From: Camelus ferus
Lineage: Eukaryota
Direction of reading: 5' to 3'
NCBI RefSeq assembly: GCF_009834535.1
Contig: NC_045696.1
Location: 68,822,001-68,886,000 of the forward strand
Length of the DNA: 64,000 nucleotides
A model generated the notes under the pieces. It worked only from the letters and a program-made list of their open reading frames with translations. It was not told where the DNA came from and did not search any database. Below, in pieces: positions 8,244-64,000 of this stretch. Within the stretch, counting starts at the first letter, position 1, and the number at the start of each line of letters is the position of its first letter. Both the position numbers and the translations under genes were made by a program.

Positions 8244-8261
8244 AAACGAAGACAATTCTGG

Positions 8262-8368
8262 GGAGAGGGAGGGAAATAGCTCAGTGATAGGGCACACACT
8301 TAGCATGCACAAGGTCCTGGGTTCAATCCCCAGTACCTCCACTTAAAAAAAAAAAGAGAGAGAGAGAG
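8262..8368 (+). mobile_element. Camelid tRNA-derived SINE (vic-1 type)
   Basis: A box tagctcagtgatag, B box ggttcaatccc, A/GA tail, imperfect TSD agacaattctgg 8250-8261 / agacagtcctgg 8369-8380. Confidence 0.88.
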
Positions 8369-18133: not shown

Positions 18134-19299
18134 ACAAAAAGTAAATCATCAGTAGTCAGAAAACTGGAAGTGAAGTGCCTGCAGGTAAAAGCAGAATGCA
18201 TCACTCACCTGAGGCATCAGCACCACCTGGAAGCTTGTTAGAACTCCAACACTCTGGCCCCACCATAGACCTAGTGAATAAGAATCTCTGGGAGTGGGTC
18301 CTGATAACTGTGCTTCAGCAAGCTTTTCAGGTGATTTTTATGCAAATTAAGTTTGAAAAGCACTGCAATAAGTAAGGTATCAAAACCCAGAGTTTTGGGA
18401 ATGATAAGCACCTGGTATTCTCTGAGGACAGGGGTTCTGAGTGAGGCCAAACTTCAAAAGAACTAACTGAAAGTCAGTTTGAAGAGGGGTTAGAATCCCA
18501 GATTTCTTCCTTCAGTTCAAGCAGCCAGTTAACTGCACAAACAAGAAGTTTACTCTCAGAAAATGACGACGTGGGTCGACTTGACTTGAGGCAGAAGGAC
18601 CAGAAATGGCTGAAAGTAAAAATGAGTCAACACACTCAAAACAGGGAGATGAGAGGAAAATCTGCTTATTAAAGTAAACTTCTCTCTCTTGGCTTCCAAA
18701 ATGTTGGAAAGCAAGTGTGTTATTATCTCCCTCCCCAAGCAGGACATGGGAGAAGTTCTCCATAGTTAGACTGAGTAGCCTACAAGTACTGACATAATGG
18801 GGTAACCCCTCCCCCCCCAAAAAAGGCTGGGTCTCTTGCTGCCCAGCTACCCTGTAGTGAGGCTCACCAGCCTACAATCCCCACCAGAGCACTTCCAATT
18901 TCAGTGCCTCTTTTAAGTAAGAAAAGGGAGCCAAAGATCACAAGACATTTGAAGAAAGAATATAATGTGAAAGTCACAAAAGTAGACCCCCCTGCAAAAA
19001 AAAGGAGTTGAAGAAAGGCAATGCAAGAAGCAGAGAAAAATAACTCAAAACTATAATTAATGCCCTCTGAAAGATTAAAGATATTGCATACATGAAACAA
19101 GAAGGCTATAGAGTACTTGAAGAATAAAAATCATTCTTAGAAATTTTAAGAGTCTTTAGGAAAAATCAAAATTGAAATAAAAGAATTGAAAGGTAACGTT
19201 GAGGAGATTGCTAAGAAATCAGAACAACAACAAAAAGGCGAAGAGAACACAGGAGAAAAGAGATAAGAAAATCAGAGGATTGACCCAAGAGACTCAATG

Positions 19300-20210
19300 T
19301 TTTTAGGAAACTCCATACTGCTTTCCACAGCAGCTACAGCATTTTGCATTCCCACCAACAGTGCACAAGGGTTCCAATTCCTCAACGTCCTCATCAACAC
19401 TTGTTGTCTTTTTTTTTTTTTTTTTGACTAATAGTTATCATGACGGGGGTATAAGACAATATCACATTGTCATTTTGATTTGCATTTCTCTGATGATTAA
19501 TGATGTTGAGCATTTTAAAAAATATCTGTTGGCCAGTTGTATGTCTTCTTTGGCAAAATATATATTCAAGTCCTTAGCCCATTTTTCAATTGGATTATTG
19601 GGTTTTATGCTAGTTGAGTTGTAGGAACTCCTTATCTATTTTGAAGATTAAACCTTTAACTACTGTGTGATCCACTAATCCTACTTCTGGGGATTTATTC
19701 ACAAGAATTGAAATCAGGGTCTCAAAGAAACATTAGGACTTTCGTGTTCACTGCTACACTATACACAATAGCCGAGATGTGGAAACAACCCAAATGTCTG
19801 TTGATAAATGGATAAAGAAAATGTGGTATATATATTCAATGAAATACCACTGAGCCTTAAAAAAAAGAAGGACAATATCTGACAACATGGATGAGCCTTG
19901 AGAACATTATACTCATTGAAATAAGCCAGTCACTGAAATGGTGCATGATTCCACTTATTTGAGGTGTCTAAAACAGTCAAATTCAGAGTCGAAGAGTAGA
20001 ATGGTGGTTGCCAGGGGCTTGGGAGGAGAAAGCAGGGAGTTACTAACCATGGGCATAAAGTTTCAGTTAAGCAAGATGAATAAGCTCTAGAGACTACTGT
20101 CCAGCATTGCCTCTGTAGTCAACAACAATGAATGACACTCTTAAAAATTTGTTAAGAGGCTAGCTCTCATGTTATGTGTCCTGACCACAATAAAATAATT
20201 TTTTAAAAAA
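19300..20210 (+). mobile_element. L1MA-type element with 5' inversion
   Basis: 19300-19655 is minus-strand ORF2; 19657-20210 is the adjoining plus-strand 3' end. Confidence 0.8.
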
Positions 20211-22754
20211 TCCGGGTTTCAACATCTGCCCTAAAAACCAGCCAAGGAAGGATTCTAAAGAGGAGAAACCCCTCTGATGCAGAGAAAAACCTCATCTCTG
20301 TCAAAAATGAAGTCACCAAAGCAACTATGCTAAAGATCCATGCAAGGATCCTATTAAAAACAAATGAAGAAAAGAAAAGAAAACAAACAGGATATAAAGG
20401 ACATTTATCAGAGGAAAAAAAGTTGCTTTGGATAACTTGAAAATTATGACTATTTTACCACAAAAGTTTAAAAAATTAAAGATTTGATTGCAAAATTGAA
20501 AGAACATACAGTGTCCCAGGAAAAAGTAACACAGAGACCTCCCGTAAAACAAAGTTACTGAACTTCAAAGACAAAGAATTCTTTGGGGAGCTATGCAAAA
20601 ATAGTAAGTCATTTACAAAGGACAAAAACAAGGCTGATCTCAGATTTCTCAAGAGCAAATTTCCATTCCAGTAAATTGTGGAGCAATGCTTATAAATCCT
20701 CAAGAGAAATCATAACCGAAGACTATTTTACACATTCAAAATGTCACTCAAGTGCAAAGGTGAGAAATAAACATTTTGAATATTTGATGAGCCCTTCTAG
20801 TAGAAAATGCTAGAAAGATGAACTTCAGTCAGCCAAGAGATAAATGAGAAAAACAATAGGACTGGCATTGAGATGGATCTACTTTACTGTAGGACAAAGA
20901 TTAAAGCAAATGCAGGGGTTACGGTAACAATGCAGAATGTAAAAGTAATAATCCTGACTGAATGGAAACAACATATATATAACAGATTTGAGAAAATAAT
21001 TGGGAGAATTAGTAGGTACTAGTATTTGCTGAAATCACTCGTGCTTTATAGCAAGAGGTCAAAAGATATCATTGGAAGCTGATAAATCAAGTAAAAGTAA
21101 TGGAAGTTTATTCAGCAATACAAAGGTAAGTGCTAAGAAAAATGGCAACTAAAATTGAATGGAGGGGGGAAGAGGAAGCCAAAGGAAATACACTAATTTG
21201 TGGCTGCCCCCCATGTGGAGTTAGATTCTGTCTAAACAGACATAGTATTAAACATTTTAAGTTACAGTCAGAATTATTTTAGGTCAAAAATAAATATTTT
21301 TCAAGTATTCAAATAAACACACACATTCTAAACAATTACAAAACACACTGCGTGGTAGATATGAAGATACAAAAACATAAAACTAAATAATATGACAGAA
21401 CTAAGCTAAAAATATTTGCTCTGTGAAAGACTCTGTTAAGAAGATAAGACAAGCTACAGAATGAGTGAAGATATCTGCAAAACACGTGCCTGACAAAGAG
21501 CTAGTATTTAGACTATGTATTTAAAAAAACTCTCAAAACTCAACAGTAAAATAGAGACAAGTTGGTAAAAGGGAACAAATTTTCAGTTATAAGATGAATT
21601 AGGTCTAAGGCTCTGATGTAAAACATGGTATCTATAGTTGATAACACTGTGCTGTATCATTGAAATTGGCTGAGAGTAGAACTTAAATGTTCTCACCCCC
21701 CCCAAAAAAAGGTAAATATATGATGGTTGCCTTAATTAATTCAAAGAGAGGAAAGCTTTCATGATGTATATGTATATTAAATCATGTTGTACACTTTAAA
21801 TACCTTACAATTTCGCTTATCAATTATGCCTCAATAAAGCTGTGGGGGAAACCACAATAATAATCAAAAAAAAACCCCAAACAGTTCACCGAAGAGGATA
21901 CATAGATTGCAAACCAGCATTTAAAAAGACATTCAACATTATTAGCCAACTGAGAAGTGCAAATTAAAACCACAGTGAGATATCACTACATACCTAGCAG
22001 AATAACTAAAATAAAAAATAGTGACAACACCAACTGCTGGTGAGAATGCAGAGAAATTAGATGACCTCTAACTTGCTGGTGGGAATATAAAATGATACAG
22101 CCACTCCAGAAAGCAATTTGGCAGTTTCTGAAAAACTGAACATGCATTTACCATGCAACTCAGCAATTGCATTTCTGGGCATTTCTTACACAGAAACCTG
22201 TACATAAATGTTCACAGCAACTTCATTTGTAAAGGCCCAAAACTGAAATCAGCCCAGATGTCCTCCAGCTGGTGAAGAGTTAAACAAATTGTGGCATATT
22301 CCTCATAGAGTACTACTCAGCACCAAAAAAGGCACAAATGACTCAGAGAAAACAGCTGAGATGAATCTCCAGAGAATTATGCCAAGTAAAAAATGCCAAT
22401 CCCAAAAGGTTACATACTGAGTGTTTCTGTTTATATTTCAATCCTTCAATGACATAATTATAGAGATGGAAAACAGACTAGTAGTTACCATGGATTAAAG
22501 ACGGAGTGGGGATAGGTGGTAAGTGGGTGTGGCCATTAAAGAGCAACATGAAGAATTCTTCTGGTGATGGAAATGTTCTGTATCTTGACTATATCAATCT
22601 CAATATCCTGGTTGAATATTTTAGGATATGTTTATAGGATGTTACCTTTGGGGAGAACTGGCTAAAGGGCACAGAGGATCTCCTTGTATTACTTCTGACA
22701 ACTGCTCATGAAAGGACAATTATCTCAAGTTGTAAAATTTAATTTTTAAATGCT

Positions 22755-23745
22755 GATAGGTTTATTTTTTGCCTTCAAAGTTACTAACCATAGATACAAT
22801 GAAGTTTTTAACATTGATACACAAGTTATTTCAAGAAAACAATTTAAAGAATCATATTTGGATATCATTTTCTGAGTACTAGCTGCAGTTGAGTGATAAG
22901 AAGTAACATCATGGGTCATGTCATTTCATAAACAACACTGTCTCCGAGACTTAAAAAAGAAAAACCCCATCATAACCCCAGCATTATAGAATTCATTACT
23001 AAAACTAGGAGAACTACCTTGAATGATGTAAGTCTCCCATTAACAACCAGTAAAAGTTTGAATGTCTTAGCCTGCATAAGAAAACCAGGTCTAAGAAGAA
23101 AAACACTTTTAAAATATTTTGTTCACTATTTGAGATGACTGGAATGCTTTGCTTCAATCAAAAAAGTAAAAAGTAGAAGACTAACATATCTTTCAAAGGC
23201 ATTTGAAAGTTAAAGTCCTTCCACTGCAAGAAAATAAGATCAATCTCATTAAATGAAGGAAATTATGGTGAGATTTAATCAACAAATGTATGTCATGTTA
23301 AACTCACTTACCAATACCTTTCAAAATTTCCATCTTTGTATGGGTTAAATAAGGATAGGCTTAAAGACAGATTTGCAAATATACCGACTTTGAGTATGAT
23401 GATTAGATTTAAAGATCTGTGTGATTAATCCTTTTGTGATTATGTAAAAATGCTAGTCAATATTTGCAGGATAACATAGGTAGATAAGATACCTGGTCTA
23501 CCCTTGGATGATTTAATCGGTGTAAGGAGGAAGGGTTTTGTGTATACAATTCGAACTTTCATATCCACTTGTTTGCAAAGAAGGGTCTTATAATATAGCA
23601 TCTCCAACTACAAATCTGAAAAAGATTTCAGCGTACCACTGCAGTTACTGCAAAGATGAACGAGGTAAACTGTTAACATTTAACAGCTTTGATATTCCTT
23701 TAAAGTTAGAACTAAATTAGCATAGATACTGTATTAGCAGCAATC
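22755..23745 (+). mobile_element. Fossil C-terminal half of a hAT Charlie/Buster-type transposase
   Basis: Ordered motifs across frameshifts: LFQENNL 22826, HKQH 22927 (HCxxHRQHL), IEFITKTRRTTLND 22986, KFECLSLHKKTR 23054 (FERLLLHTEVRW), LTYLSKAFE 23181, LQENKINLIK 23224, VINPF 23421, SYPL ~23558, ASPTTNL..FS (dimerisation domain). Confidence 0.75.
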
Positions 23746-23899
23746 TTACTAACTTTTGTGAATATTATTTTAAAATAAAAGTACCATTTAAAATTTAGTT
23801 GCCTAAGAAATCTGTGATATGGACATATCATCTTGACTCGTGGCAGGGAGATAAGGCATTTGTGATCGAGGAAGAAACAGCTCAGAATGGTGGTCCTGG

Positions 23900-24600
23900 T
23901 CTCTGAAAGCCTGAGGTTGCTCACGGACAAGAGGGCGCCTCCTCGAGGCCTTGGCGGTTCCTCGCTTGTTGACCCACTCGAGGCCAGGCTGTTTGTCTCT
24001 GGCTCTCACCTCCCAAGGTATGAGAATCTTTTACTAGTTTACCTAACACTAGTCTGCGCTGTGCGCTAAGCCCTTTGCGGGGCGGCAGATGAGGCACTGA
24101 GGCCAGACCAAGGACAGCTGAGTAACTGGAACTCCACAGCGGCTCAGAGCGCATCATACTCAGCAATCACCCCGCCCCCGGCCGCTCCTCAGAGGGGCGT
24201 GGCCGGAGGCGGGGGCGGGGCCTGTCGCCTGGGAAACCACGTGCTGTGCAGCCGTGCACTTCCGGCCTCAGTTTCCGTTGAACGGCGGCAGGTAGTCGGG
24301 GTGGACCGTTGCTGCCCGCAGACGCCAGCGAAGGAAGAAGGGTCTTTGAGGCTCAGAGCCACCGAGACCCCAGCTCCTCTTAGCCGACTGGCCCCCCACT
24401 AATCTATGCGTCGAGGTCCGCGTGCCCCTCCCCTGGGAAAAGCTGAAGTGCGGACGCCTGAAAGAACCGCTGCTGGGCATGGGTAAGAAAGTTCCCTCCT
24501 CAACCTCACCCTCAGCCTGGTCCACCCAGCAGGGTTGAAGGCAGCAAACTATGCCACAGCAGTAGCTTCTGGAGGTCACTCATCGTCGCCACCTGTTCCT
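23900..24600 (+). promoter_or_regulatory. CpG-island promoter with probable first exon (~24270-24482)
   Basis: Only CpG-dense non-coding block in the window. GC boxes (~24171-24222), X-box-like GTCGCCTGGGAAAC 24224-24237, CACGTG 24238-24243, ETS site CACTTCCGG 24257-24265, Inr-like TCAGTTT at ~24270, CCGTTGAACGG (MYB-like palindrome) 24275-24285, donor TGG|GTAAGA at 24482/24483. Confidence 0.8.
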
Positions 24601-24956
24601 GGCTTGGAGAGGCGGAAATCTGACTTTGAAGTAGCTTTGAAGGGATTCTTGCTCAGGCCTTTTTTAGTGGTCAGTCTGTTGTTGCCCAATTAGGGTCCAC
24701 AGAAGCTGACCTTATGAACACCCAGGATGTGAGAGATACTAATTAGTGGTTGAATCAACAAAGAATGTGTCTCACCTACCTACTTCATCCCCTCGCTACC
24801 TCTTTCCTAAGGGTTCTCACTGGCTCAAAAAAGTTTCTTCCTCAGTGAATTCCAGTAGATTAAGATTTTGGAGTCTCCTTTAAGGTTCAGGTCCTCAAGG
24901 ATAGTCCAGGGAATCTCCCCACTTCCTTTCTTCCTCCAGAGACATAAGCCCCAACT

Positions 24957-25141
24957 AGGACCGGCTTCATAGAGGTACAGCCTGTGCAGTCACAAGGCTC
25001 CCTGCTCAGAAGGACGCTGTCCTCAGAGGGCCCTGTGCTTGTTTTAACGCTCTGTGGTGGAAATCTTAAAAGTTCTTAATTTTTGAATAAAGGGCCCCAA
25101 TTTGCACTTTTCACTGGGCCCAGCAGATTATGCACTAACTC
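24957..25141 (+). mobile_element. MER45A-like hAT MITE
   Basis: ggaccggcttcat..cctgtgcagtc..ctcagaagg..cactgggccc..attatg matches the MER45A consensus as recalled. Confidence 0.75.
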
Positions 25142-25584
25142 TCATGTTTTCCCAAAGGTTTTCTTTGATGACATTCAATTATATATAAAAAATATATTTA
25201 CAAGTTTCCCTAGATAGACCTCTCAGTAGCTATTAAGACATCAAGAGACAGAGGAGAGATGATTCTGTTGACTAAACTGAGAGTTCCTGGAATCATGAGA
25301 TCTTTGTGATCCAATGGCTCACCCTCCACATCTCCTCATTGTATTTTAGGACCTTTGAAGAATATGCAGAATGTGGAAATACCACACCTCTGAGCACAGC
25401 AATGCTTGGCTCCTTGCCTAAGGAGAGAAGCAGGTGAGGAATCAGCTAATTATATATTAATGGGTGCTCTGGGACTGCTTTTACAGGTGCCCTGGAAGGG
25501 CTGGAGCAGGTGGATGTGGGGATGCAGAGAACAGAGGCTGTGTTAATTTGACAAGAGTAGGAGACTTAGAGAAGGAGGTTCTAA

Positions 25585-25868
25585 ATCTGTGTTGTCTAGT
25601 TCCTTGCCACAAACTACAGGTGGCTATTGAGCACTCGAAATGTGGCTGTCTGAAATATGATGTGCTCTAAATGTACAAAGCAACCAGATTCCAAATTCTT
25701 TCTTTTTAGAGTAAGTCTATTTTTATAAGTTAATTGCATGTTGAAATGGTATTTTGGATATATTGAACATATTAAAATTTCACTTGTTCATTTCTACTTT
25801 TTGACATGACTACTAGAAAATTTGAATTATACTTGTGCTCACATTACGTTTCTTTTGGAGAGCTCTGT
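25585..25868. mobile_element. MER33/MER3-like hAT MITE
   Basis: gtggctattgagcactcgaaatgtggct...actagaaaatttgaattatac. Confidence 0.75.
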
Positions 25869-27459
25869 TCTAAAGTTTTTGGAATATTGGAAGCTACTTG
25901 CTTTAAAAGTTCAGAAAATGTTTCATCTCCCTCAAAAAACTCACACTGCCTTTCATCTCCCAGAAAGCACCCCTACCTGCTGTTAAAATATCACCCACAT
26001 AACCCAGCTAACCCCCAGCTAAAGGCCTTAGCATTTAAAGAAGTGCCACCTAACCGGAAGTAGTCTAGGATAGACTTACAATCACTTTTACAGGAAAGGA
26101 ATGCTCAAACTTCTGTCAGCTGTTGCCACTAGAATCAGTTCAGTTGCTGGTAGAGGTATTTCTGCTACTTTGGCTCTTTATTTGGTCAGATTAGCAGAAG
26201 CGAACTATTGAGAAACTATAGGAAAAGGAAGGAAGAAGTAAGTGAGGGTGGGTGGTCACCTCACCAGCCTTCACTCCAAATCGTTACATTGTTCCAAACG
26301 ATGGGATTACAGCAGCCTTGGCCTGGCTGCTTTTTGTCAATCCCATCACCTTGAAAAGTAACTAGCTTTAGTGAAGAAACTGCCTGGTCCTCCAGTCTGA
26401 AGGAGAGCCAAGAACAGAATTAAAGCTCTTACTTAAGCAGCTTCCCTTAGTTGTGAAATGCACACCTGTGGACTCCAGTATCTTCATCTTAAGTTTCAAA
26501 TGGCCCTTAAAAGCAGTGTGGTGAGTGAAGATGTGAGCTCTAAACCAATGTGAATTAGATGCTCATCTTAACCCAAACCTCCTAGAGCCTCTCGTTCCCT
26601 GGAAAGTAGCTCTAAATGTGTATGTAAGGCCCTGAGGCCCAGGCCTGTTCTGGTGTGCGAGTCTCAGTATCAGTGGATTGCCTCAAAGAACTGTCTTGAA
26701 AGGGATCTGCCCAGCCGCTGGGGTTGCAGCCAGAGCATTGGCTGCCGTTTCTCCCATCCTTTGGGGAGGTGCCGTCACCGGCATGGTTCTGTTTGTTTTC
26801 ATATTGCCTACATTTTCTGAAGTGATTCAGTTTTAGGTTTGTGTCTTCCCCTGGAAAGATTTGGCTTTGTGAGCTATTTCACCCAAGTTTGCTCCCTGCT
26901 GCTTACCCCTTCACCCGTGAGGCTCACTCTCAGCTGTGCCCTTGAACCGCATTGCCTCATGAGCTACACTGATTGACCAAAGCCCAGAACCTGGATCTCC
27001 AGCCCCTCAGAAACTTGCGGATGACCAAGATGAGACTCTGTCCCATCAGTGTGGGAGGACCTACCATCACGTGGACATGTCTAGACAAGAGATAAAGAAA
27101 GTTTTAAGCAGAAAAGCCTTGGCAAGTTGAGTTGGAGAGAATCTCAGCTCAAAATGCTGTCTGAACTTCCGTGATTTCACCCAGCTTGCAAAGGCCAGGC
27201 TTCTGTTTATCTCTCAACCACGATCAAGTCAGCACTCCAAGATAGGATTCAGGTGTCCCCAGCAAAGAATGTGAACTATTTGGGAATCCACAGAAGTGAT
27301 GCTTTGGGGAGAATAACTTGGAATTCTGGACTTTTTGCAATTTCCAGGAGGCTGAAGCTCAGGCATTGCCCCCAGCACCAAGTAAGATATCTATCAAATA
27401 GATGTGTCCTAAGAAGAGCTGGCTTGGTCTTGTCCTGATCTTTGACTTTTGCCAGTGAC

Positions 27460-29245
27460 AGTATCTTGGCCTATAGTTTTCTTTGTTAGAAATTTTCAAC
27501 TACAAAGTCAGTATCTTTACTAGATATAAATTTGTCCAATAATTTGCTCCTCTGTAATGTATTTTTTTCTTGTGGCCATTGGCAATATTTTCTTTTTAAC
27601 TTTGATTTTTTTCAGCAATTTGGATATGATGTGTCAGGGTGTGTATTTTTTGGTTTATCCTGCTTGAAAATCTTTTCCTTCAATCTATAGTTTGGTATAT
27701 TTCATTATTTGGGAGGAAGATTCAGCAATTCTTTCTTCAAATATTTCTTCTGCTGTTCTCCTTCTGGGATTCTAAATCCCTGCTGGAATTTCCTATCTGT
27801 CCAGTCATGTTTTCCACTAGAACCTTTAACATATATGATTAATGATAATTATTAATCAAAGTTATTTTAAATTTCCCCTCTCATGGTTTCAGTACTTCAG
27901 TTCTCTGAGTCTGATTCTGCTGAATGCTTTCTCTGTTGACACTGGGTTGGGTTTTTTTTTTTTCTTCCTTTTTGTATGTCTCATATGCCTGGCATCTTGT
28001 GTAAGAGAGTAGAGATTACAGGAAAGAAAATGTCGGGCTCAAAATAGGCACGTTTCTTCTGCTAAGTCAGTAATGCGGTGTGCCGAATCAGTCTAACCAG
28101 TAGGTAAGGTGGGTTTGGGCTTTATTGTCTCACCCTCAGAACACAACAAGTTTTGATTCCTCTAGTATTAACGTATGCTTAGGATGTGGGCTGGAGAGTT
28201 AGAGGGATTTCCTCAATGTTCCTTTTTCACTCAGCTTCTAGCCTTCCCTGCAAACCTGCGTCACAGGGGGATCTCTCTCCGTGCTTTTGCCTTCCCCCCT
28301 GCTTGTTACCTGGTGCTTGCTAGCTTGGGAGCGGGGGCCAGGGAACTCTTAGTCATTCTGGTCCAGCCTCTTTTAGGGAAAGCCTTGTATTCTTAAGCCT
28401 TGAGAGGGGGCCTTCTCAGACCTTCAGTCTCCCTGTGGCAGACAGGATTTCTGCCTTGAATCTTTGATGGGTCTTGAGGAGATGAGAGTCTCCTAACCCT
28501 CTTCCGGTGCAGGAGCACGCTGAGTGTATTGGCAAGGGATCCTGCCCCTCCTTACCAAGAGGTAGGGGTTGTTTGTCCTCCCCTACTCCTACCTACCCTT
28601 ACTCAGTATCACCGGACCTTTGCATGTATGCTGGAGGCAACAGAATTTGCTGTCCCTTCCCTGGTGGCTTGAAGCTATTATTTATAGGTAAGGAAGGGTC
28701 TGCACAGGACTTTTGCCTTCCCCACGATGGGAGCTTACTCCCCTCCAACAGGCTTTCACCACCAACACTCTGGTCTCTTGCTTTGTCCGAGATCTTTCTC
28801 ATTGGGATCCAGTGGAGAACATGGAGAAGAGACTGAAAATGAGAGCAAACTCGTTGTCTGAGGCGCCCAGGGCTTCTGCACTCTCATGCTAGTCCACACT
28901 TGGCCTTTAACAACTTAATGATTTTAGCTGAACTCACCTTGTGTTGTACTTGATGTCTCCTCTTCTGTGCTCGCATCTTATCTCTCCTTCGTGGGGCCAG
29001 TCTCTCCTCGAATTTCAGGCTGCTTGATTAGTCTGCAACCCTAGCTGCGGTGACCCATCATCCCAGCTTGCCTGGGACTGAGGAGTTTCCCAGGACATGA
29101 CACATTCAGTGCTAAACACAGGAATGTCCACTTGGCCACCCTAATGTCTGCCCTCTGGTAGGTTCAAGAAAAGGTATTTTGTAGTTTTTCTGGTTGTTAA
29201 GGTAAGAGGGATGCTTTTTCTAGGTGTTTACGTCTTTGGCAGAAG
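27460..29245 (-). mobile_element. Old L1 5'/ORF1 region, with a MER81-like MITE at ~29047-29143
   Basis: T-rich antisense ORF1 texture; ggtgacccatcatccc..gggact..ggccacccta. Confidence 0.6.
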
Positions 29246-30099
29246 CCAAATTACTGAAATATTTATGTATATTGAATCTGAACAAAAGCGGTTCTTGAGA
29301 CAGTAGGAAGCCATATGGGGAAGCATCTGTTCTTACTAAGGCAGAGGGGTTCTCGGGAAGTCTTTCCTAGAATAGAGAGGAGGAAAAATAAGTTTAGTTT
29401 CTGCCATTCCTTTGTTTGTCAGGAGCAGATTTATCTGATTACTTAAATGAACTCTAGTTGAAGAGGTGGATTCACACCTGCTTTTTCCACAGCTCTATCC
29501 GCCATTCAGCTAGCACCCGATTTGGGCTTTACTCCCCTGCAGGCAAGTCTCTCCTATAGATTTTTGAGTGAAATTTAAAAACTTAAAAACTTAAAAACTT
29601 AAGGTCTTTTGTGGATAAGAAAGAAGGCCGAGTGCAGCAATAAGCTTTCTACAGCAAGAATACTGACCACCTCTGGGTAGATGTGTGTGTGTGCACATGC
29701 ACGTGTGACTTTGCTATTAAATGTCTGGGGACGTATTTACTTACATTGCTATGGCTAGTATATCTGCTCTTGTGTTTTTCGTTTCAGATATTGTGGGAGC
29801 CAGGAGTGTTTATGACCCCTGTAGCCAGCATTAATGGTTATGAGGTACACAGCCTCCAGGCAATGCTCCGTATTTTGTGTGATAAGGAAGGCTCTATCAT
29901 TTTCTTGGTTACTGTTTTGAGTATCCTTGAGTATCCAGGAGAAATACTTATGGCCTCTGATGAGCTTGTAAGCTGTGTATGTGATCTCTACCTATTAAAT
30001 GGTCAAGATAGTTTGATTACTACAGTAAGAACCATAAGACCAGAAGGATGTATAATCTAAATAGCTATGAGGTATATATGGTTGTAGATATAGTTATGA

Positions 30100-30688: not shown

Positions 30689-30801
30689 GGGGAGGGTATA
30701 GCTCAGGTGGTAGAGCACATGCATGAGGTTCAATCCCCAGCACCTCCTCTAAAAAATAAATAAACCTAATTACCTCCCCTCAACAAAAGAAATCTATTAA
30801 A
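30689..30801 (+). mobile_element. Camelid tRNA-derived SINE (vic-1 type) with TSD
   Basis: ggggagggtatagctcaggtggtagag..ggttcaatcccc; TSD aaaagacacagaagag 30671-30686 / aaaagacgcagaagag 30802-30817. Confidence 0.9.
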
Positions 30802-32159
30802 AAAAGACGCAGAAGAGGGAAATGTTTCAACCTGCAGGAGGGTGTATAGGCATAGGAGTTTTATATATGCGATAAAAGGCTTTTAAATAACATTTTGATT
30901 TTAGGTTGTGTACCGAACAAAGAAGTGCAGAAAACTAAAAGAGGACATGCTAAGGAAAAGGATTCAGAAAGTTGTACAGTGATGCCTTGAATTCACTACA
31001 AGTCAGTGGAGTATGAATTACACAGACAAGCATGATCACATATTTGATGGAAACTTCATGTGATGCAGATAACTTGGTAATGGTGGAAATGTGGAAAAAA
31101 ACAGCTTGCAGGAAGATTGCTATTTCTGTGTCAAGTATTTTCTGTATAAAGTATTTTCAGTTTCAAAACTGAAGCCATTTGCCATACAGAAAAAAAAAGT
31201 GGAAAAATTTTATCAATTCCATTTATGATAAGTAAGAATAAAACCGATGAATGGTATGTATAAAGAACTTTGGTTTAAAGGTGACAAGGACATTACCAAC
31301 GCACGTGAAGCACAGCAAGATTCACAAATGACTAGAAAATCTCACAACTTTACAAACTAGTTCTTATAACCCAGAGGCCGCTTAGGGCAGTCAGGAGGTA
31401 TGCCCGCAGCTTTCGACGAGTCTGTAGCAGGGACTCTTGACTTTCTCAAGAGTGGGATGCTTTGCGGACTTGTGATTGGTTTTCAAGCCAAGTGATTATT
31501 ATAACAAATATAGCTTGTAGCTGTGAGTGGGGTGAAGTCTTTTAACCTAGCCTGAGAGTAATCACCGATATCCTCCTTATAGACCTATTGGGTGACCGAG
31601 ATGACTTTGTAGAGCTGTTAAGTGGTACTCATTTGTATAAGAACCTGATATTCTCACAAAAGTGAAAAGTGATTGTATTTGCATCTTGGCCTCTTTGGGG
31701 TAGGAAGTTCCCTGTTTCTCTTAAGGGGAAAAAAAGGAACTTTTTACATTGTGTGCTTTTTTCTTGTTTAAAGTTTCAGATAGTTTTTTAGTTTTGCATG
31801 TATTTTTACATTGGGAGTGAAGAACTAAGGCTGTAGATAGCATCGATCTCTGAGTTTTAAACAACTTTTTAAGTAAGGTTTTCAGAAACTTAGACAATTT
31901 TTCTTAATTTTGAAAGCTATTTAATTTTGTGAGCTAATTACATTAGCAACTAAAGTTTAGGAAGTTACGTCTTAGAACTTTATGACTTTTTACGCTTTCT
32001 ACTTTGGGAATTGACTTTAAATGAGGGCAGCAGGGTGATGGTGGGTAGGATTAGTGCAGTGACATGTGACATACGACTGAATGGAAAAAAGGAGAGCCAG
32101 TGACCTCACTGTGCAATCAAATATAAACATAATTTAATGATTATGCCTGTGTCATCACC

Positions 32160-34599: not shown

Positions 34600-36860
34600 G
34601 TTGATAACTTTTTGTCTAGACCAACATGTTGACTCTAAAGCAACGTGATGCTGTCATTTTCGTATAACTCATCACTTAGAAATATTGATTTAATAAATAA
34701 ACTTCCTTAATATAAATGCCTACTTTACTATGAGGTATGGAGAACCAGGACCACATGAAATTCACTCAGTTTAGCCACTTCCTTATTGATATATCTTATT
34801 GAATCCCATGTGTTTTGGGAATTGTCTGGGATGTAGGTATTTTCCCTGTTCAATAGCACATGGTCCATCCTTCCTTCCCCACTAGAATATAGTATTAAGG
34901 ACATGTGGTTTTGGACCGCCGTGTATCTTATAACTACCATTTCTTCAGAACTACCGTTGCATATACAGTAGCTGTATCACAGATCTCTGAGGTTGCCTTG
35001 TCAACCTGAACTTTGGAAATTATATAGTAAATTCTCTTCCTGAGCCTAATAAGGATTTTAGGGAGCCATTTAGTGGCTCCCAGTGCTGGTCTAGTTAGTC
35101 TCCAATAGCAGCTCCCACTGTATTTCTGAGGCAGCCACTCCCTCCCCACAGGACCAGTCCTGCACCGAGTTTTCCTTCTCTTTTTCCCTCTTACCGGATT
35201 TTGTGAAAATCTTCCTGTATTTCGAAGTGAGAGACTCTACCAGAGTTCAGTAGGTGTTCTGTGTGATTCAGTGGGTTTGTAGATGTAATTCTTGGTGGAT
35301 TTGTGGGAGAGGGTGAGCTGTGAGTCTCTCTACTCCGCCATCTTGGCACCTCTGTATTTTCTCTTATAACTGCAGTAGAGCCTCCATGTATTACTACTTT
35401 TTTTTTTAGGATATTACTTTTAAATTTAGCCTTTGCATAGGCTGTCCAGTTTCTGAAATTTGCCTGATTTTTTACTTAGTAATATGATTTCCCATCCTTC
35501 AATTTTTCTGGAATAAAGTATGTATCTTCACAATTGGAATCTGTATTATTCTATATATACAGCCTCTAGACCAATTAGATAACTTGGCATATAACCAAAT
35601 TTGTGCAATTTAGTCTTTTCTTGAGAAAAGTCAGTTATTACAGGTGTTCTGAATCACCTGAGCTATCTCGTGCGATCATTTCTTCAGGGTGGAGCTGCTG
35701 TCATAACCAGTGCTGTTGTACTGGAATGAGGACCTCCGGCTTATTGGCTATAACCTTATTTAAACTGGTATTATAGCCAGACTTTCTAGAATTTATCTTC
35801 ACTCTCTTTAATGAGGGTAATAAATACCTGTTTGAATTTCTTTCTAAGTTTCCATGCAAGTTAGTGTCGGCTAACAGCTGTATGTCATTGGCATTGAACT
35901 TCTGGGCAATGCTGGGTAAGCGCTCCTAGTCCAGGAGTCTCCAGGGGATAGCAGTCTACTAGCCCACTTTACTGGGAGCTAATACCTGGACTGGTTCAAA
36001 AATATCTTTGTCCTACTGCACATCTCTGTCTTACTCCAAAAGGTTTTCATTGAGAAGACTTTTAAATGAGAATGATTTCAAGAACCCTAGCTAGTACAAC
36101 TGGTACTCTCATTGGGTTTGGAAGCAGCCCAGTTGATTTCTTCCCCTATATCCTTCCAAGCTTTTTCTGAGTGGTTGGAGCCAATTAGCCAACAGTAGAA
36201 TTTGTTACAGAAGGAATGGTGAAATCATATCCAAAGAGTAGATCAAAGTCAGCTAAAGGTTCTTTTTTCTGTGGGGAAAAGAGGAGAGGATGGGGCGGAG
36301 ACAGTAGTGTGTCTTCCCTGTCTTTATTACCTATTTGGTGTTTCCAGGCCTGTCTTTTATCTCTGTGAGCCCATAAACTCCTGCAGGGGTACTTGTGGCT
36401 TGGTTTCCATGAAACATTTGTGTCTCAACCACACCCCACTCTGTACCCCACCCTACATACCCACTAGTCTGTTACTTGCATATGAAGCCTCCTGCTCCCC
36501 TGTGTTCCCAGTGGGGAAAGTGTCCTAATCTGAGGACACTGGCCTCCCTACTAGGGCATTTGTCTCAGAACTGTCTGAAGTTTGGAGATTAGGGTTCAAA
36601 AGCAGACAGTAAGGTTGGAAATCTCTATCAGTTTTCTTGGTATTTCCTTACCATAATATTTATGGATTGCCCATTAATTTGGGCTTTTTGCACCGTATCT
36701 TTTAATGGCCAGACCAATAGGTCTTTCTACTGAGAACATCTTCTTTCTCTTTTTTATATTTCCCCTCATTTTCCTTTGGTTATTTTGGGAACTGAAATTT
36801 CCAGAAGTCTTCCTAAGCTATATTTCCCAAAACTGTGTATAGCAGGGACTTCTAGTTAAC
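34600..36860 (-). mobile_element. Heavily deleted class III (ERV-L/ERV-S-like) provirus: gag, pro, pol and env remnants
   Basis: gag KDLLVWPLKDTVQKAQINGQSINIMVRKY 36726-36631; TAG near 36550 then GSRRLHMQVT (protease N-term); LFGY..IP (RT) ~36230; env WLPQKYSGSCY..RLRKR (35047-35033) and TAVQNHMSL..TYIPDNS. Confidence 0.7.
35143..35352 (-). mobile_element. Isolated first ~200 nt of an L1 5' UTR
   Basis: Reverse complement begins gaggtgccaagatggcggagtag..ctcaccctctcccacaaa. Confidence 0.8.
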
Positions 36861-40377: not shown

Positions 40378-40697
40378 TTGAAGTTCAATTTGTGTGGGCA
40401 TACTACAAAGGACAGCAAATTGGCAAGGTGGTCCAGGGGATAGGAAGATGTGCCATCTACATTGAACAAGTGCAGCAGGAGAAGGCCTATGACACCTCTG
40501 TCCCTGTGGTTATTCACCCCAGCAAAGTGGTTATCTCTAGGACAAAACTAGACCAAAATTGCAAAAGAGCCTTGAACATAAAGCCAAATGTCACCCAGTA
40601 AGGGAGTAAAAGGGCAACTATAAGGAAGAAATAATTAAAGTGATACAGGAATAAAATAATCTTATCTACAACTTCCATTAAAAAATGCTAAAATGAA
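40378..40697 (+). pseudogene. RPL26: 5'-truncated processed pseudogene of ribosomal protein L26 (uL24)
   Basis: [52 protein letters not shown] aligns to RPL26 [52 protein letters not shown]. 1-nt frameshift near 40565; native CAGGAATAA stop ends 40654; RPL26-like 3' UTR (taatcttat...attaaa) then a decayed AT-rich tail; intronless. Confidence 0.93.
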
Positions 40698-40959
40698 TAT
40701 GTGTATGTGTCTGTATATCTATCAATAGATTAATTCAATATAATTCATTTAAATAAATGTATAAATATAAATGGATATATATTCATGTTTGTATATTGAT
40801 AAAGATACATATTCATACACATATCTAATGTCTTTATGAAGACCTATGGGGAGATTTCCTTGTCTCCAGATTAAAAATTAATTTTGAGTCTCATGAATGG
40901 CAGATTTCTCTATTTTTTTTGGAGACCCTGACCTTATAATAGATCAAGTTCCTCATTTT

Positions 40960-43900
40960 CATGCATTGTTCTTATGCCCAGAACACACATAAGACAGAAA
41001 AACAGGCAAAAGATTTTAACAGATGACCTATATATACACATAAGAAAGATATAAAAATGTCTCTTACACATTAAAAAAAATGGATATCTAGCCTTACTTA
41101 GAGGAATGCAAATTAAATTACAGTGAAATACCATTTCTCACCTATCAGATTAGGGAAAGTTGGATAATATGACACCCCTAGAGCACTTAGCTTTGGTGAC
41201 CAGAGGAGAGTGTGCTGCTGAGCTCCATAGGATGTCTGTCTCCTATATAAGATCACGTCCCCAAGATCAGGAAACATAACTGACCTACCCTAATGCATAG
41301 AAATAAACAGAATTAGGCAAAATGAGGAGATAAAGGAATATGTTCCAGGCAAGATAAAACCCCAGAAGAATAACTAAGTGAAGTAAAGATAAGTAATCTA
41401 CCCAATAAGAGTTTAAGGTAATGATCATAAAGATCATCACCAAACTCAGGAGAAGAATGGATGGACACAGTGAAAATCTTAAGAGTTAGAAAATATAAAA
41501 ACCAAACAGAGCCGAAGAATACAATAACTGAAATAAAAAATACACTAGAAGGGATCAACAATTGTATATAATGCTGTGTGAACACTGGAGTGCATGCATC
41601 TTTTCAAATTGGTGTTCTTGGTTTTTCTGGTTTTGGTTTTGGTTCCTTTGGGTTTTTGGTGGTTTTTCTTTTATTTCTTTTTTTTTTTTTTTTTTGGTGG
41701 GGGGGATATATATCCAGGAGTGGAATTCCTGGGTCATATGATAGTTCTGTTTTTAGCTTTTTGAGAACCTCGGTACTATTTTCTACAGTGGCTGCACCAA
41801 CTTCCATTCACACCAACAGTGTAGGAAGGTTCCCTTTTCTCCACACCCTCGCCAACATTTGTTATTACTGTTCTTTCTGATGATAGCCATTCTGACAGTG
41901 TGAGGTGAGATCTCATTGTAGTTTTGATTTGCATTTCCTTGGTGATTAGTGATGTTGAACATCTTTTTATGTGTCTGTTGGACATCTGCATTTCCTCTTT
42001 GAAAAATGTCTATTCATTTCTTCTACCCAGTTTTTAATTGGGTTGGTTTTTTCATTTGTTTTGTTCTGTTTTGTTTCATATTGAGTTGTGTGAGCTGTTT
42101 ATATTTTTTGGATACTAACCCTTTAATAGTCATATCATTTGCAGATATTTTCTCACATTCAGTAGGTTTTCACTTTGGTTTCCTTTGCTGTGCAAAAGCT
42201 TTTAAATTTAATTAGATCCCATTTATTCATTTTTGCTTTTATTTACTTTGCTTTAGGAGACAGATCCAAAAAATATTGCTGCAATTTATGTCAAAAGAGT
42301 GTTCTTCCTGTTTTTCTCTCGGATTTTTATGGTTTCCAGTATTACATTTAGGTTTTTAATCCATTTTGAGTTAATTTTTGTATATGGTGTTATAGAATGT
42401 TCTAATTTCATTCTTTTACGTATAGTTGTCCAGTTTTGCCAGCACAGCTTGTTGAAGAGATTATCCTTTCTCCATTGTATATTCCTGCCTCCTTTTTAAT
42501 AGATTAATTGACCATAAGTGTGTGGGTTTATTTCTGGGCTCTGTGTTCTGTTCCATTGATCTATGTGTCTGTTTTTGTGCCAATACCATACTGTTTTGAT
42601 TACTGTAGCTCTATAGTATAGTCTGAAATCAGGGAGCATGAGTCCTTCAGCTCTGTTTTTCTTTCTCAGGATTGTTTTAGCTATTCAAGGTCTTTTGTGT
42701 TTTCATATACATTTTAAAATCATTTGTTCTAGTTCTGTGAAAAATGCCATTGGTATTTTGATAGGGATTGCATTGAATCTGTAGATTGCCTTTGGTAGTA
42801 TGGACATTTTAACAATATTAATTTTTCCAATCAAAGAACATGGTGTATTTTTCCATCTGATCTGTCATCCTCAATTTCTTCCATCAGTGTCTTACAGTTT
42901 TCTGAGTACAGGTCTTTTGCCTCCTAAGATAGGTTTATTCAAAGGTGATGCAAAGGTGAATGAGACTGTTTCCTTAATTTCTCTTTCTGATAATTCGTTG
43001 TTAGTACACAGAAATGCAACAGATTTCTGTATATTAATTTTGTATCCTACATTTTTACCAAAATTAGTTTTCTGGTGGCATCTTTAGGATTTTCTGTGTA
43101 TAGTATCATGTCATCTGCAAACAATGACAGTCTTACCTCCTCCCTTCCAATTTGAATTCCTTTCATTTCTTTTCCTTGTCCGACTCTTGTGACCAGGACC
43201 TCCAATATGATGTTGAATAAAAGTGGCAGGAATGGCCATCCCTGTCCTTTTCCCAATCCCAGAGGAAATGCTTTCTGCTTTTTACTATTGAGTATGATGT
43301 TAGCTGTGGGTTTATTTAACTTTTTACCATTCAGTTTTCCTTTTTAATGGTACCCCCTGAACTTCTATTCATTGCCTATACAACAGGTAGGCTCTACTTT
43401 CATCTTTACTTCTTCCTGAACCTTCCATTTTTAATTGCATTATTTCTTATTTGTCAAAACATAAATTATTATTCTCAACTCAAACTTTAGGTCTTAGATC
43501 TACAATTAAATATATTAAAATTTTACAGACTTCTGGTTCTAGTTGTGCAGTAAGGAGCTTGGAAGTCACCATGTTGTCCCAACAATAAGTAAAAAGCTTA
43601 ACATACTGAAAGGTCAACAGTTCCTCTTAGATCTGTAAGAGAAAGTCAGACATTGGGCAAACAGTTGCTCCCAGGATTGGACACACGGGTGAATACCAGG
43701 AGTCATGGCTTACCTAAACAGAGACTCACCAGTGGAAAAAACCACGGAAGCTGGTGCCAGGGAAGGAAAACATGAACTGTAATTTGACAAGTTACTAGAA
43801 GTTCAGTGTAGACAACTCTGAGAATTAAAAACTCCAGAGATTCCTAGTTATAGGGGAGGAGGGAATAGTTATGGGTGGGCAGAGTTTTGTGAGTTTACCT

Positions 43901-46900
43901 CCAGGGACTTGACCATATTTTCACAATAAATGTTGGAGAAAAATCTCCTTACACTCCCTCAGGGGAAGGAGAAAGAAACCATCTCAGAATATGCCAGAGA
44001 ACTCTGTTCTTCTTAACAAGGCTTGCCCTCAGGAGAAACTATTCAACCAGAGCCTGGCTGTTGCAGGGGCAGGGCAAGTACACTATTCCAGCACATTCCA
44101 GCCTTCTTGTTCCACCTAAGTGGGGGAAGAGAGAAACTGAGAAACCCTTTGAAGTTCAGTCCAGGGGTAGCAGCCCACTAAACAACTGAGACCTAATCAT
44201 AGGACTGTAGAACGCCATCCCCTACACCTTATCACTACATTTCTAAAAGCCTGTTTACAGCAGTTCCTTTTAACCAGTATATCACATCCAGCTATCATGA
44301 AAAATTACAAAGTGTACTAAAAAACAAAAAACACAGTTTGAAAAGATGGAGGAAGCTTCAGAGCCAGTCATGGCAGGAATGTTGGAATTATCAGCCCAGG
44401 GAATTTAAAACAACTATGAGTAACATGCTAAGGGCTCTGATGATTAAAGTAGACAGCTGACAAGAAGACAGGAGCAATGCCGCAGAGTGATGGGAACCCT
44501 AAGAAATCAATGCTAGCAATCCAAACACTGTAACAGAAAGGAAGAATGCTTTTGGTGGGCTTATTAGTAAATTGTCAGCTAAGGAAAGAACCTCTGAACT
44601 TGCGTATATATCAAAAGAAACCTCCCCTAAAGGAGCTGAACAGTATACAAAAATCAATTGAATTACATATATAGTAGAAATGAATAATTAGAAACTTAAA
44701 AAAATTTTAAATAGTACCGATGACAGTATACCAAAACATGAAAAACAAGTGTAAATCTAACAAGATATGTGCTGGATTGTATGCTGAAAGTTACAAACAC
44801 CAGTGAAAGAAAGTAAAGCCCTAAATAGAGATACTGTATTCATAGGTTAGAGAATTCACTATTGTTAAATTGTCACTTTCAAATTGATCTATAGCTTCAA
44901 CACAATTCCAGTCAGAAACACAGAGGGCTTTCAGAAACAGACAAGTTGCTTCTAAAATATATGGAAATACAAAGGACCTAGAATACCCAAAAGAATGAAA
45001 AAGAACACCAGTGTTGAAGGCCTCAGTACTACCTGATTTTGATACTTACTATAAAGCTACAGTAATTGAGCTGGCATGGGCTTGGTGCAAGAATAGATAT
45101 GTACAATGGAGGAATGAAATCATTTTATTAAGTTAGCTTGGCGTTGACCATTTCAGATGAATTTCATCAGCTACCTGGCAAAGCCTTTCATCTGTATATT
45201 AATGTTTTATTTCTAGGACGTTTCCTTCAACTATAATTTTAAATAATAGTTCCATTGCTTTTTATTTCTTCAAGGATTCCAATTATATCTAAGTTGCATT
45301 GCCTGTCTTCTGTGTCATTTATGTCCTTCCTGACTCTTTATCTCATTTCACTTTGGCTGGCTGTCTTCAGTACTGCTCATTAAATTTCCATTTGAGTCCG
45401 TTCTCCCTTGGGTGTTGTAGTGAGTTAAATGTTGGCCTCCCACACGATGTGCCCACTTCAAACCTGTGAATGTGACTTTATCTGGTAAAAGGGGCTTGTA
45501 GATGTGATTAAGTTAAGGATCTTGAGATGAGACCCGAATCCAATGGCAAGTGTCCTTAGAAGAAAAGGAGAGAAGGCATTTAAAATAGAAGGCAATGTGA
45601 AGGTGGAGGTGGAGATTAGAATGATGTATCATCTATCAGCCAGGGAACATCAAGGATTGCTGGCGGCCACTGGAAGCTGGGAGAGCGGGATGAAAACTGG
45701 GAGCACCTACAGGAGGGACCAGCCCTGCCCACTTCTTGATTTCAGACTTCAGGCCTGCTGAACATGAGAGAACCAGTTTCTATGGTTTTCAGTCACCCAG
45801 TTAGTGGTAATTTGTTAAGGCAGCCCCAGGAAACAAATACAGTTACTTTCTTAAAATTTACTTGTCAATTCTGAGATGATTTTTCTTTTTGTTCTGTTTA
45901 TTTCTTGAGTTCAAACAATTCTTTTTTAAAGTATCTTCCTATTTTTTTTCCAAATCCATTTATGTTTTTAATTTCTGATTGAACATAGTTTTCCATATTT
46001 CCAAATGCTTATTTGAGGTTATTTAGTTCAACCTGAAATGTGTTGTGGTTTTCTTTCACTTCATGGTTGTTTGGGTTTTGTGTTTTGCTTTTTATTTCCC
46101 TTGAAATGAAGGAAGATTTTCATCACTTGAGATATTTGATTCTCTTCTTTCTCTCTCTCTCTCTCTTTTTTTTTTTTTTTTTTTCTGTAAGTAGCTTTGC
46201 ATAGATGTATTCCTTTTTCTTCAGTTTTGTTTGTGGCTTTGAGATGGTTTACAAGATTCTTAGCTTAATGGTGCCCTCTTCTGTCAATGTGGCAAAGTAC
46301 AGCTTTTTTAATGCTTGTTTTTAATATGTTCTGTATTTGAGATCTAAGCCTGTTACATGCACGGAGGAAAATAAAGATTTATCTTAAGGCCCTCACCTTT
46401 CCAGTTCAGTGTGATTGAAACTTATTGCTGTCTCAGGAAGAGTTTCCAAAAGCACTCAGTTTTCCTGCATGACCCCAGAGTGGTATCTTCACATTTCCTT
46501 AAGAAGTGCTTTCTCTGGGCTTTCCCCAGACTTACTCCCTACTTCCCTCTCTCTCTGTAAACCACTGTTTTGGCATATCTAACCAAAACAAGGAGGCTTA
46601 AGCCAACAATAATGCAGTTGTAGGGGGAAAAAAAGGAACAGAAATAACAGGGATCGAGGGGAAAGGGGAATTCTAAGATGACGGTGATGAGATGGAGCTG
46701 TATGACAATACTTGTTTAGTGTGGGGTTGGAGATCCCCAGCTCAGGGGGATGCCTCCCTCACATCCCTCCTCAAAAAAGGAAGGGAATAGAATATCTAAT
46801 ATTTATAAATAAATATACTGAGAAGAGTTCATAGCTCTGTCAGAATTTGGGGATAAACTGATTATATTACAAAAAAACCCTAAGTAAGCACAAATGTAAT

Positions 46901-50823: not shown

Positions 50824-51119
50824 ACTTCCTTGAGCCATAGGAAACCATCTGTGTCACTACTTTTGCAAACTTGTGTTGAGATTTAGGCCTAACAATGTTA
50901 ACTTCACTCTTTTGTGAGTGTATAATTTTACTCCTTAACTACTCTGTAAATGCCTTTGAAAGCAGGGACTTTGTCTTATTAATCTTGTATCCTTATCTGT
51001 ACAATGGGAATAATACCAGTACCTTCTCATAAAGTTGTTAGAAGGATTAACACTAAAAATATTAAGTGCATAAAAGTGTTCCTGGCTTGTGGCAAAGGTT
51101 GTATGAGTTTCTCATTAGT

Positions 51120-54100: not shown

Positions 54101-55535
54101 GTTTCCCTGATTCTTCATGATTCTGGTAGCCTTGTTTAGGTATCTGTGCTTTTGAAGAATCAGTGGCCTCTTTCAAACTTTATGGGCTGACTTCGGTAAG
54201 GAAAATTTCACCTGTGAGTGAGGGTACACCGAGGGATACTGTGATGCCAGGGCTAGTGTGCAGGGTTCCAAGTATGTGGCAGCACTAGGTCCAGCAGGGG
54301 CATACCGTCTCTTCAGTTCACATCACTGAGCTTCCCAGCATCAACAACTGTATGTCCTCAGAAAGGACTGTAGGGAGTATGCAGCAGTTACAAGAGCTCT
54401 TGGGGTCCTCAGCGGTGCCTCCAGGTTCAGCAGCTAGGGACCAGGGCAGGCATTGTGGTGGTGTGCACACACTCAGCTGTGGGGACCAGCGGCAGGTGCT
54501 TCTGTCATGGCAGGAGCCAGTTGCAGATACATACATGACGGGGGCCAGGACGGGCAGCAAGGGCCAGAGACAACTACAAGCTCACTGGCAGCTCCTGGGC
54601 GCCGGCTATCAGCATGCTCTCTCATGGCTGCATAATCTTCCCCTGGGTGTGTGAACTGCAGCGAAGACTGATGAGGGTGTACAGGTGCTGGAGGAAAAGC
54701 ATGTGCAGGTAAGCTCTGTGGTTCAGGCCAGTGACATAAGACAGGGCCTGATCTGGGCCCACAAGTAGTGCACACTGCAGTGAGGGCCAGCGATGGATGT
54801 CAGTCTAGCATCATAATAATGAACCGGAGGGGCTCGCTCTCAGTGCACACACAGCAGGGGACAGCTACAGGGGTCCAAGCCAATGTTTCGCACTAGTACA
54901 GCCTCAGATGCCAGAGCTGGCTGCCAGTGCAGTTCTCAGGCTCTGATGGGAACAAGGGTTAGTAGGGGGTGATGGAGCAGGGAGGGATCCAGGCAGCTGG
55001 CATCAGCGAACACAAACACCTGTAGGACAAAAGCTGGTGAAATCTGCAGGGAGTCTGTGACACCTGTGCTGGCCATTGGCTCTTATTCAGTGGCCAAAGG
55101 CACTGTGTTTGTCTGCAGAGCAGGTCACTGAACTGTGAGCACTCCTGCTACATGGCTGCTTTTGTTCGGAGCCACCTGTATACATCTCAGCTTCGCCTGT
55201 CTGTAGGGTGAAACCTAAGTAGGTTGTTTGTGTGGTACCCGAAAGGTTGGAGAAACTGCTCACCCCACTATTCCTTTCCTAGCAAGGGGAACTCTTTCTA
55301 GCTAGGACGTTACCTCTTGGCACTGAGAAGTGCCAGCTCAGGGGATAGGATGATGCAGGCAGAATGAAACTAATTTTCTCAGGGCTTTTGTTCCACCATG
55401 TGCTAAAATTTCTTAAGTGGAATCCAGAACTCTCCCAGAGCTATTTTTGTTCATGGCCGGCTTTCTAATTATTAGTCTTTGTGTGGGGATAGGGTTTGGG
55501 GTCTCCTGTGCCACCATTTTGGTGCCATCACTCTC
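51120..55535 (-). mobile_element. L1MA-type element with both ends and an internal ORF2 deletion near 52575
   Basis: PolyT at 51121; ORF2 3' motifs; ORF1 MKIQELSDEEFKIIVLKMLRELKENT 53900-54118; 5' terminus (rc gatggcaccaaaatgg) at ~55530. Confidence 0.85.
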
Positions 55536-61230: not shown

Positions 61231-61236
61231 TTTATT
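61231..61236 (-). terminator. Polyadenylation signal of ST6GAL1
   Basis: tttatt on + equals AATAAA on -, followed by U/pyrimidine-rich sequence. Confidence 0.75.
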
Positions 61237-63713: not shown

Positions 63714-63961
63714 TTAGGCTCCACAGCGAATGCTCCGGAAGCCAGGCAGTATGGCTTTCCCCAGCAGGTAAATGTCCTCGTCTGTGCCCCGGTTGAGGTG
63801 CTTCACCATGTTCTTCTCGAAGAGGAGCGGGTGGTAGGCGCCCATCGTGCAGGCGCTGTCGAAGAACTTCTGGTAGTAGTAGCACACGTCGGTCTTGCGC
63901 TTGGAGGGGAGGAACTCATAAATATCCACCTGGTCACACAGCGTCATCATGATGATGATGC
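63714..63961 (-). CDS. ST6GAL1: Last coding exon of beta-galactoside alpha-2,6-sialyltransferase 1 (gene continues beyond the window end)
   Basis: Translates (G)[81 protein letters not shown]: end of sialylmotif S, motif III (YYY) and motif VS (HPLLFE). Pyrimidine-rich acceptor cctctgctcccctccctag abuts 63961, phase 1. Confidence 0.98.
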
Positions 63962-64000
63962 CTAGGGAGGGGAGCAGAGGTGAGTCCCGCCCAACGACCA

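Follow-up and report, generated by a model that had tools for sequence, protein, structure and literature searches.

Genomic context of the island

The window, that is, the whole 64-kb stretch of camel DNA that was analysed, carries one CpG island, the coding portion of a sialyltransferase last exon and a processed pseudogene of RPL26, and their coordinates are collected in Table 1 together with those of the elements found or predicted in and around the island. The sialyltransferase exon, which we take to be that of ST6GAL1, is the syntenic anchor of the locus, and a candidate polyA signal of the gene is located at 61236, about 37 kb from the island. With this exon on the minus strand, it is the 3' end of ST6GAL1 that the plus strand of the island faces. 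RTP1, the second gene that would flank an RPL39L locus, was not found in the window, so that synteny involves the ST6GAL1 anchor only.

Other features of the window include slight CpG retention at 56001-56500 (12 CpG, o/e 0.43), which may mark an enhancer some 5 kb beyond the ST6GAL1 polyA signal, and a pair of short SINE copies of tRNA-like type, each with an A-rich tail, recognized by eye at 8260-8350 and 30690-30760. Moreover, self-comparison of the window reveals old fragments, 60-73% mutually identical and presumably of LINE-1 type, at 900-1800, 19000-22500, 40900-45200, 50900-54200, and 57500-58300.

Table 1. Position and strand of the features discussed in the text; shuffle counts refer to dinucleotide shuffles of 23900-24600
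Feature	Position	Strand	Remarks
CpG island (core 24001-24500)	23690..24530	.	GC 55%, o/e 0.66, 42 CpG; no other in the window
Best placement of human RPL39L promoter bisulphite primers	23981..24097	-	Reverse primer 18/22 at 23981-24002
Strong donor, candidate for a divergent transcript	24004..24012 (24009)	-	Rank 17/3154, above the donor after 24482
MYB-like sites	24123, 24275, 24306	latter two +	Consensus match; latter two within 24258..24311
Three GC boxes	24172, 24194, 24212 (24172..24220)	.	Three reached in 0/400 shuffles
X-box-like site, one mismatch	24224-24237	+	Observed count reached in 23/400 shuffles
E-box, directly after the X-box-like site	24238 (to 24243)	+	58/400 shuffles
ETS site	24259 (feature block 24258..24311)	+	12/400 shuffles
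Inr	24268	+	Single Inr in 24240-24300; start predicted at about 24270
Predicted first exon	24270..24482	+	Ends with ATG 24479 in Kozak-like context; GT donor at 24483
Exon-like 180-nt stretch, candidate second exon	29788..29967	+	Good acceptor, modest donor; no protein relative
RPL26 processed pseudogene, 5'-truncated, frameshifted	40380..40654	+ (sense to the promoter)	Pfam PF16906, E 1.6e-8; PDB uL24, E 2e-17
Coding part of the sialyltransferase last exon, syntenic anchor	63714..63962	-	Pfam GT29 (family 29)

Architecture of the promoter

CpG islands are defined by a length of at least 500 bp, a GC content of at least 55%, and a CpG o/e of at least 0.65, and the longest stretch of the window that qualifies measures 841 bp, with a GC fraction of 0.551 and the o/e given in Table 1. 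Its core has a GC content of 62% and an o/e of 0.70, against 0.18 for the 64-kb window, and holds 34 CpG where 8.9 are expected (P about 1e-10). No second stretch with GC >55% and o/e >=0.6 occurs in the 64 kb, and the promoter-type CpG island reported at 23900-24600 in the preliminary description is thus real. The retention of its CpGs suggests that the island is unmethylated in the germline.

The island has a TATA-less core with GC boxes, an ETS site, and an Inr. Specifically, 140 bp (24172-24311) pack GC boxes, X-box-like, E-box, ETS, Inr, and MYB-like sites, according to consensus patterns. When the motif counts are set against 400 dinucleotide shuffles, the GC boxes (0/400) and the ETS site (12/400) exceed chance, while the X-box-like site, the E-box, and the MYB-like sites are singly marginal; for the last of these, two A-MYB-like sites are reached in 22/400 shuffles and all three MYB-like sites in 34/400. 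The set of motifs described previously is therefore present, with a clear excess over chance for two of its members, and so is the donor described with it. Ranked by a weight matrix, the plus-strand donor after 24482 takes place 81 among 3441 GT sites (top 2.4%), which makes it good and not exceptional, and an ATG in good Kozak context precedes it by four bases. The predicted first exon displays no unusual RNA fold (z 0.88), and no Rfam match was obtained in 22500-29000.

The strongest donor of the island is on the minus strand and hints at a spliced divergent transcript. Two donors stand back to back at the upstream edge of the island, at 24004-24012 on the minus strand and at 24018 on the plus strand. 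U1 and polyA site counts reveal no bias in the sense direction, and this, together with the stronger minus-strand donor, indicates that the promoter may be bidirectional. The orientation toward ST6GAL1 that had been attributed to it hence stands insofar as the plus strand faces the ST6GAL1 3' end, but it perhaps describes one half of a bidirectional promoter.

Probable transcription from the island

The share of 53 sampled words from 24150-24700 was determined in each sequencing run, and this segment is present in 20 of the 24 runs listed. Nine of them, from three studies, are recorded as RNA and contain word shares of 0.40, 0.40, 0.43, 0.45, 0.49, 0.60, 0.60, 0.74, and 0.76; five are labelled as reproductive system and four are shown without a tissue. 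The further runs comprise five that are guessed to be RNA and six of unknown kind that contain all words and are probably DNA. Three runs labelled as liver or mammal share no words with the segment, and these three give no evidence of tissue specificity.

An exon that extends from 24200-24270 to 24482 predicts a word share of 0.35-0.49, with which five of the nine RNA runs agree; the remaining four (0.60-0.76) exceed it and call for an earlier start, intron sequence, or DNA. The island is present in RNA-seq assemblies and, given that 40-76% of its words recur in the nine RNA runs, it is probably transcribed, as had been proposed; this conclusion is drawn from shared sampled words, and the strand, start, and splicing of the transcript are predictions.

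Search for an RPL39 copy and for downstream coding exons

The window was scanned in six frames with an RPL39 HMM built from 31 eukaryotic L39 proteins of metagenome loci, and the best domain reached 2.1 bits; with mammalian RPL39 as the query, tblastn against the window returned a best E of 0.35. Simulated decayed RPL39 copies were recovered in 40/40, 39/40, 30/40, and 16/40 cases at 10, 20, 30, and 35% substitution, respectively. This sensitivity excludes an intact or moderately decayed RPL39 in the window, while a deleted copy would leave no relic. The earlier observation that no RPL39-like reading frame lies downstream of the promoter is accordingly borne out for both a coding copy and a relic. 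A putative RPL39 relic at 34361-34251 on the minus strand (tblastn E 0.009) was obtained with 1 of 31 queries and was discarded, as the mammalian query did not reproduce it.

The ribosomal protein relic that the window does contain is that of RPL26, 16 kb downstream of the island. About 42 of 69 residues (about 61%) are identical to PDB uL24, and the relic carries a polyA signal and has no good acceptor ahead of it. Just after it, at 40697-40824, comes an AT-rich, imperfect palindrome (about 130 bp, 74%).

According to the preliminary description, the promoter had belonged to a coding gene that has since died. In 24.5-40.9 kb, where 95 plus-strand frames reach 40 aa or more, Pfam recognizes RPL26 and otherwise five sub-cut-off matches only; no match was returned for 73 minus-strand frames, for 77 of the 129 frames in 40.9-61.2 kb (those outside 56-61 kb), or for 144 of the 197 upstream frames, in lists that omit L1-rich blocks and one short stretch. 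The exon-like stretch at 29788 belongs to the 7 best acceptor/donor pairs of 24.5-41 kb, and the ATG of the predicted first exon, joined to it in phase, opens 16 codons only. None of the exon-like downstream frames tried has a relative in Pfam, PDB, Atlas, or the protein database. The open 60-codon frame at 29788 was rejected as a protein, its lone match being an unspliced frame of near-identical DNA and its Atlas values reaching at most 0.86 with low recognition, and a 110-aa frame of the island was set aside because its match is a tandem-repeat artefact only.

Two further segments have a protein-like appearance. The first, at 30905-31700, opens in an acceptor-like manner and contains protein-like frames as well as mildly retained CpGs (o/e 0.46); one of its plus-strand frames (30905-31699) has no relative among 90 candidates of 145-464 aa, and an Arv1 Pfam match at the cut-off (E 8e-4) falls on the opposite, minus strand and is probably compositional. 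The second, at 35600-36300 on the minus strand, has a protein-like reading with scattered stops and no Pfam or meaningful PDB match. The ATG before the donor notwithstanding, descent from a dead coding gene is thus left unsupported, in a comparison that took few frames to the large databases and that may overlook exons in decay.

Relationship to the human RPL39L promoter

The position and orientation of the island relative to ST6GAL1 presumably agree with those of the human RPL39L promoter. As a proxy for orthology, three published human RPL39L promoter/5' UTR bisulphite primers (supplement of PMC11924184) were scored on both strands, and their best joint placement in the 64 kb falls in the island, running from 24097 to 23981, under both global and local backgrounds. 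Taken singly, the reverse primer has its site at rank 1-3 of 127,958. Shuffled primers equalled the island score in 2/150 and 0/150 trials under the two backgrounds, and realistic control primer sets did so in 3/90 and 4/90, for an empirical and post hoc P of about 0.03-0.04. The signal stems mainly from one degenerate 22-mer, and the score is ordinary as a whole-window maximum, being reached somewhere by 25/150 and 77/150 shuffles; an incompatible second placement at 24670 scores nearly as high, and shuffled primers also favour the island under the global background, with their top match there in 10/150.

Other comparisons were uninformative: the spacing of the human array CpGs gives no clear register, a human RT-PCR primer has no match (best 15/22), and the 120 N-terminally extended RPL39 proteins listed of 467 do not match the island, none of these 120 being RPL39L-like.

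The human RPL39L main promoter is described as an unmethylated region of similar size (hg19 chr3:186,857,139-537; PMC11924184), with probes that span about 600 bp (PMC11924184, PMC6607393), and is accompanied by an additional upstream LTR promoter about 42 kb away (PMC11924184, PMC6607393). It therefore resembles the camel island in extent and in the suggestive primer match, and differs from it in that no RPL39 CDS lies downstream of the camel island on the same strand. Orthology between the two, claimed in the preliminary description, is likely, with much of its weight coming from the presumed position and orientation; the primer test and the one syntenic anchor are suggestive of it and fall short of proof.

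Germline specificity

Promoters of the E2F6/MGA type are germline-specific CpG promoters that are silent and methylated in the soma. The island contains an E-box and neither an E2F6 nor an NRF1 site, and thus lacks the combination of E-box and E2F6 site that marks this germline-specific, somatically silenced class. A-MYB, in turn, drives the promoters of pachytene piRNAs, marked by its binding and by 26-31-nt RNAs downstream, or of meiotic lncRNAs. The island resembles these promoters in a pair of MYB-like sites where the start is predicted, in its X-box-like site, and in RNA runs with a reproductive label; conversely, its MYB excess is marginal (22/400 shuffles) and the likeness is known here from motifs.

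In human, five fractions of placental cells carry the RPL39L main promoter in unmethylated form (beta 0.02-0.04 over seven probes; PMC11924184), a probe at its edge shows partial methylation that is anticorrelated with expression in tumours of the lung (PMC6607393), and RPL39L RNA is detected in many normal tissues (PMC2660244). Given the missing E2F6/NRF1 site, the unmethylated state in placenta, and the expression in many normal tissues, the term "germline-type" is not supported in its strict sense, and the findings are better matched by an island that is open broadly, perhaps with enhancement in testis, than by a promoter restricted to the germline.

Origin of the island and age of RPL39L

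The reading preferred here, to which we assign a probability of about 0.55, is that the island is an active TATA-less CpG-island promoter without a coding gene of its own, probably orthologous to the RPL39L promoter, in its pre-insertion state, and producing a non-coding RNA. Sp/KLF and ETS factors would hold the island open and unmethylated, and RFX and MYB might boost the promoter in germ cells. Pol II would start near 24270 and generate a first exon of roughly 210 nt that is spliced at 24482, giving rise to a spliced non-coding RNA that would run toward ST6GAL1, with some divergent transcription probable. The camel island would most likely correspond to the state that preceded the insertion of an RPL39 retrocopy downstream, the latter being subsequently reached by splicing from the first exon. 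The preliminary description assigns this co-option to the human lineage and places mouse Rpl39l elsewhere, as may be the case.

It is unlikely that RPL39L is instead an older, boreoeutherian retrogene at this locus, of which the camel lineage deleted the coding exon and kept a promoter relic that still fires. Such a loss could account for the distance from the island to the ST6GAL1 polyA signal, about 37 kb here, when the interval from the human RPL39L promoter to the end of ST6GAL1 is presumably roughly 60 kb. In a genome-alignment dating, the entry taken to be human RPL39L (chr3, male-biased) is assigned to branch 6, before the primate branches 8-12, which would be compatible with an older retrogene lost in the camel lineage, but the method relies on best-to-best alignments irrespective of linkage, and the mouse entry, on chr16, leaves synteny unsettled (Zhang et al. 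2010). Linkage-blind alignments do not separate an old CDS from old non-coding exons, so that the latter, or further copies, may inflate the apparent age of a retrogene. Moreover, no RPL39 relic was found in the window, and rat St6gal1 presumably lies on chr11. Rat Rpl39l is placed on chr10 (PMC10012579), and RPL39L is not raised in cow testis (PMC5123215; PMC10093926), all of which argues against an old retrogene at this site.

In its favour, rodent Rpl39l and human RPL39L are handled as orthologues in the literature (PMC11924184, PMC5123215). The publications consulted state neither whether RPL39L is syntenic between species nor whether it arose independently. Independent out-of-X retrocopies of the same X-linked gene have been described in different lineages, including RPS4 and EIF2S3 (PMC4446799), and constitute a precedent for different sites per lineage, in a study that does not analyse RPL39L.

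A CpG island of lineage-specific or enhancer-like nature, unrelated to the human RPL39L promoter and located in the same interval by coincidence, is improbable: the post hoc P of the orthology evidence and the preference of shuffled primers for the island under the global background leave room for it, but the island is the only one in 64 kb, has the side and orientation that would be expected, and hosts a site ranking 1-3 for the reverse primer. Slightly less credible still is a lost multi-exon coding gene of which the island formed the promoter and start exon, with ATG 24479 as its start codon, since the Kozak-context ATG four bases before the donor, the exon-like 180-nt stretch, and slight CpG retention at 31001-31500 are countered by an in-phase join of 16 codons, by the lack of relatives in Pfam, PDB, Atlas, and the protein database for the frames tried, and by a single at-cut-off Pfam match (Arv1) that is on the opposite strand and looks compositional.

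Significance of a putatively unrecruited promoter

The preferred reading, an orphan promoter seen before the arrival of the retrocopy, falls within a mechanism that is already established, namely the recruitment of orphan CpG islands by retrocopies. In one survey, CpG islands without ties to other genes harbour 103/200 (51.5%) of the novel promoters of human retrocopies (Carelli et al. 2016, PMC4772013). The camel island shares with such proto-promoters a gene-free island, Sp1-type sites, and a donor-bearing first exon able to reach a distant insertion; it differs from them in belonging to a species without the retrogene, so that it would represent the unrecruited state of a presumed recruitment. 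It is therefore a fresh example and, plausibly, a pre-insertion view of the RPL39L locus, and, the general mechanism being established, at most a clean worked example of it. Its importance is modest and derives from the standing of RPL39L as the foremost case of a ribosome specific to germ cells, and from the treatment of the human and rodent genes as orthologues in the literature.

More tentatively, and with rather less than even confidence, human RPL39L and rodent Rpl39l may be separate retrocopies that captured different promoters, in which case the window would preserve an active, testis-biased non-coding RNA gene that later served as the human insertion site, and in the same unit of which an older RPL26 retrocopy died. 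If so, a single locus would have experienced a failed recruitment (RPL26) and, in primates, a successful one, and the mouse knockouts would describe a convergent gene and not the ancestor of the human gene. If an outgroup had an empty and transcribed pre-insertion site, one could test whether the testis bias of the promoter arose before the retrogene or after it.
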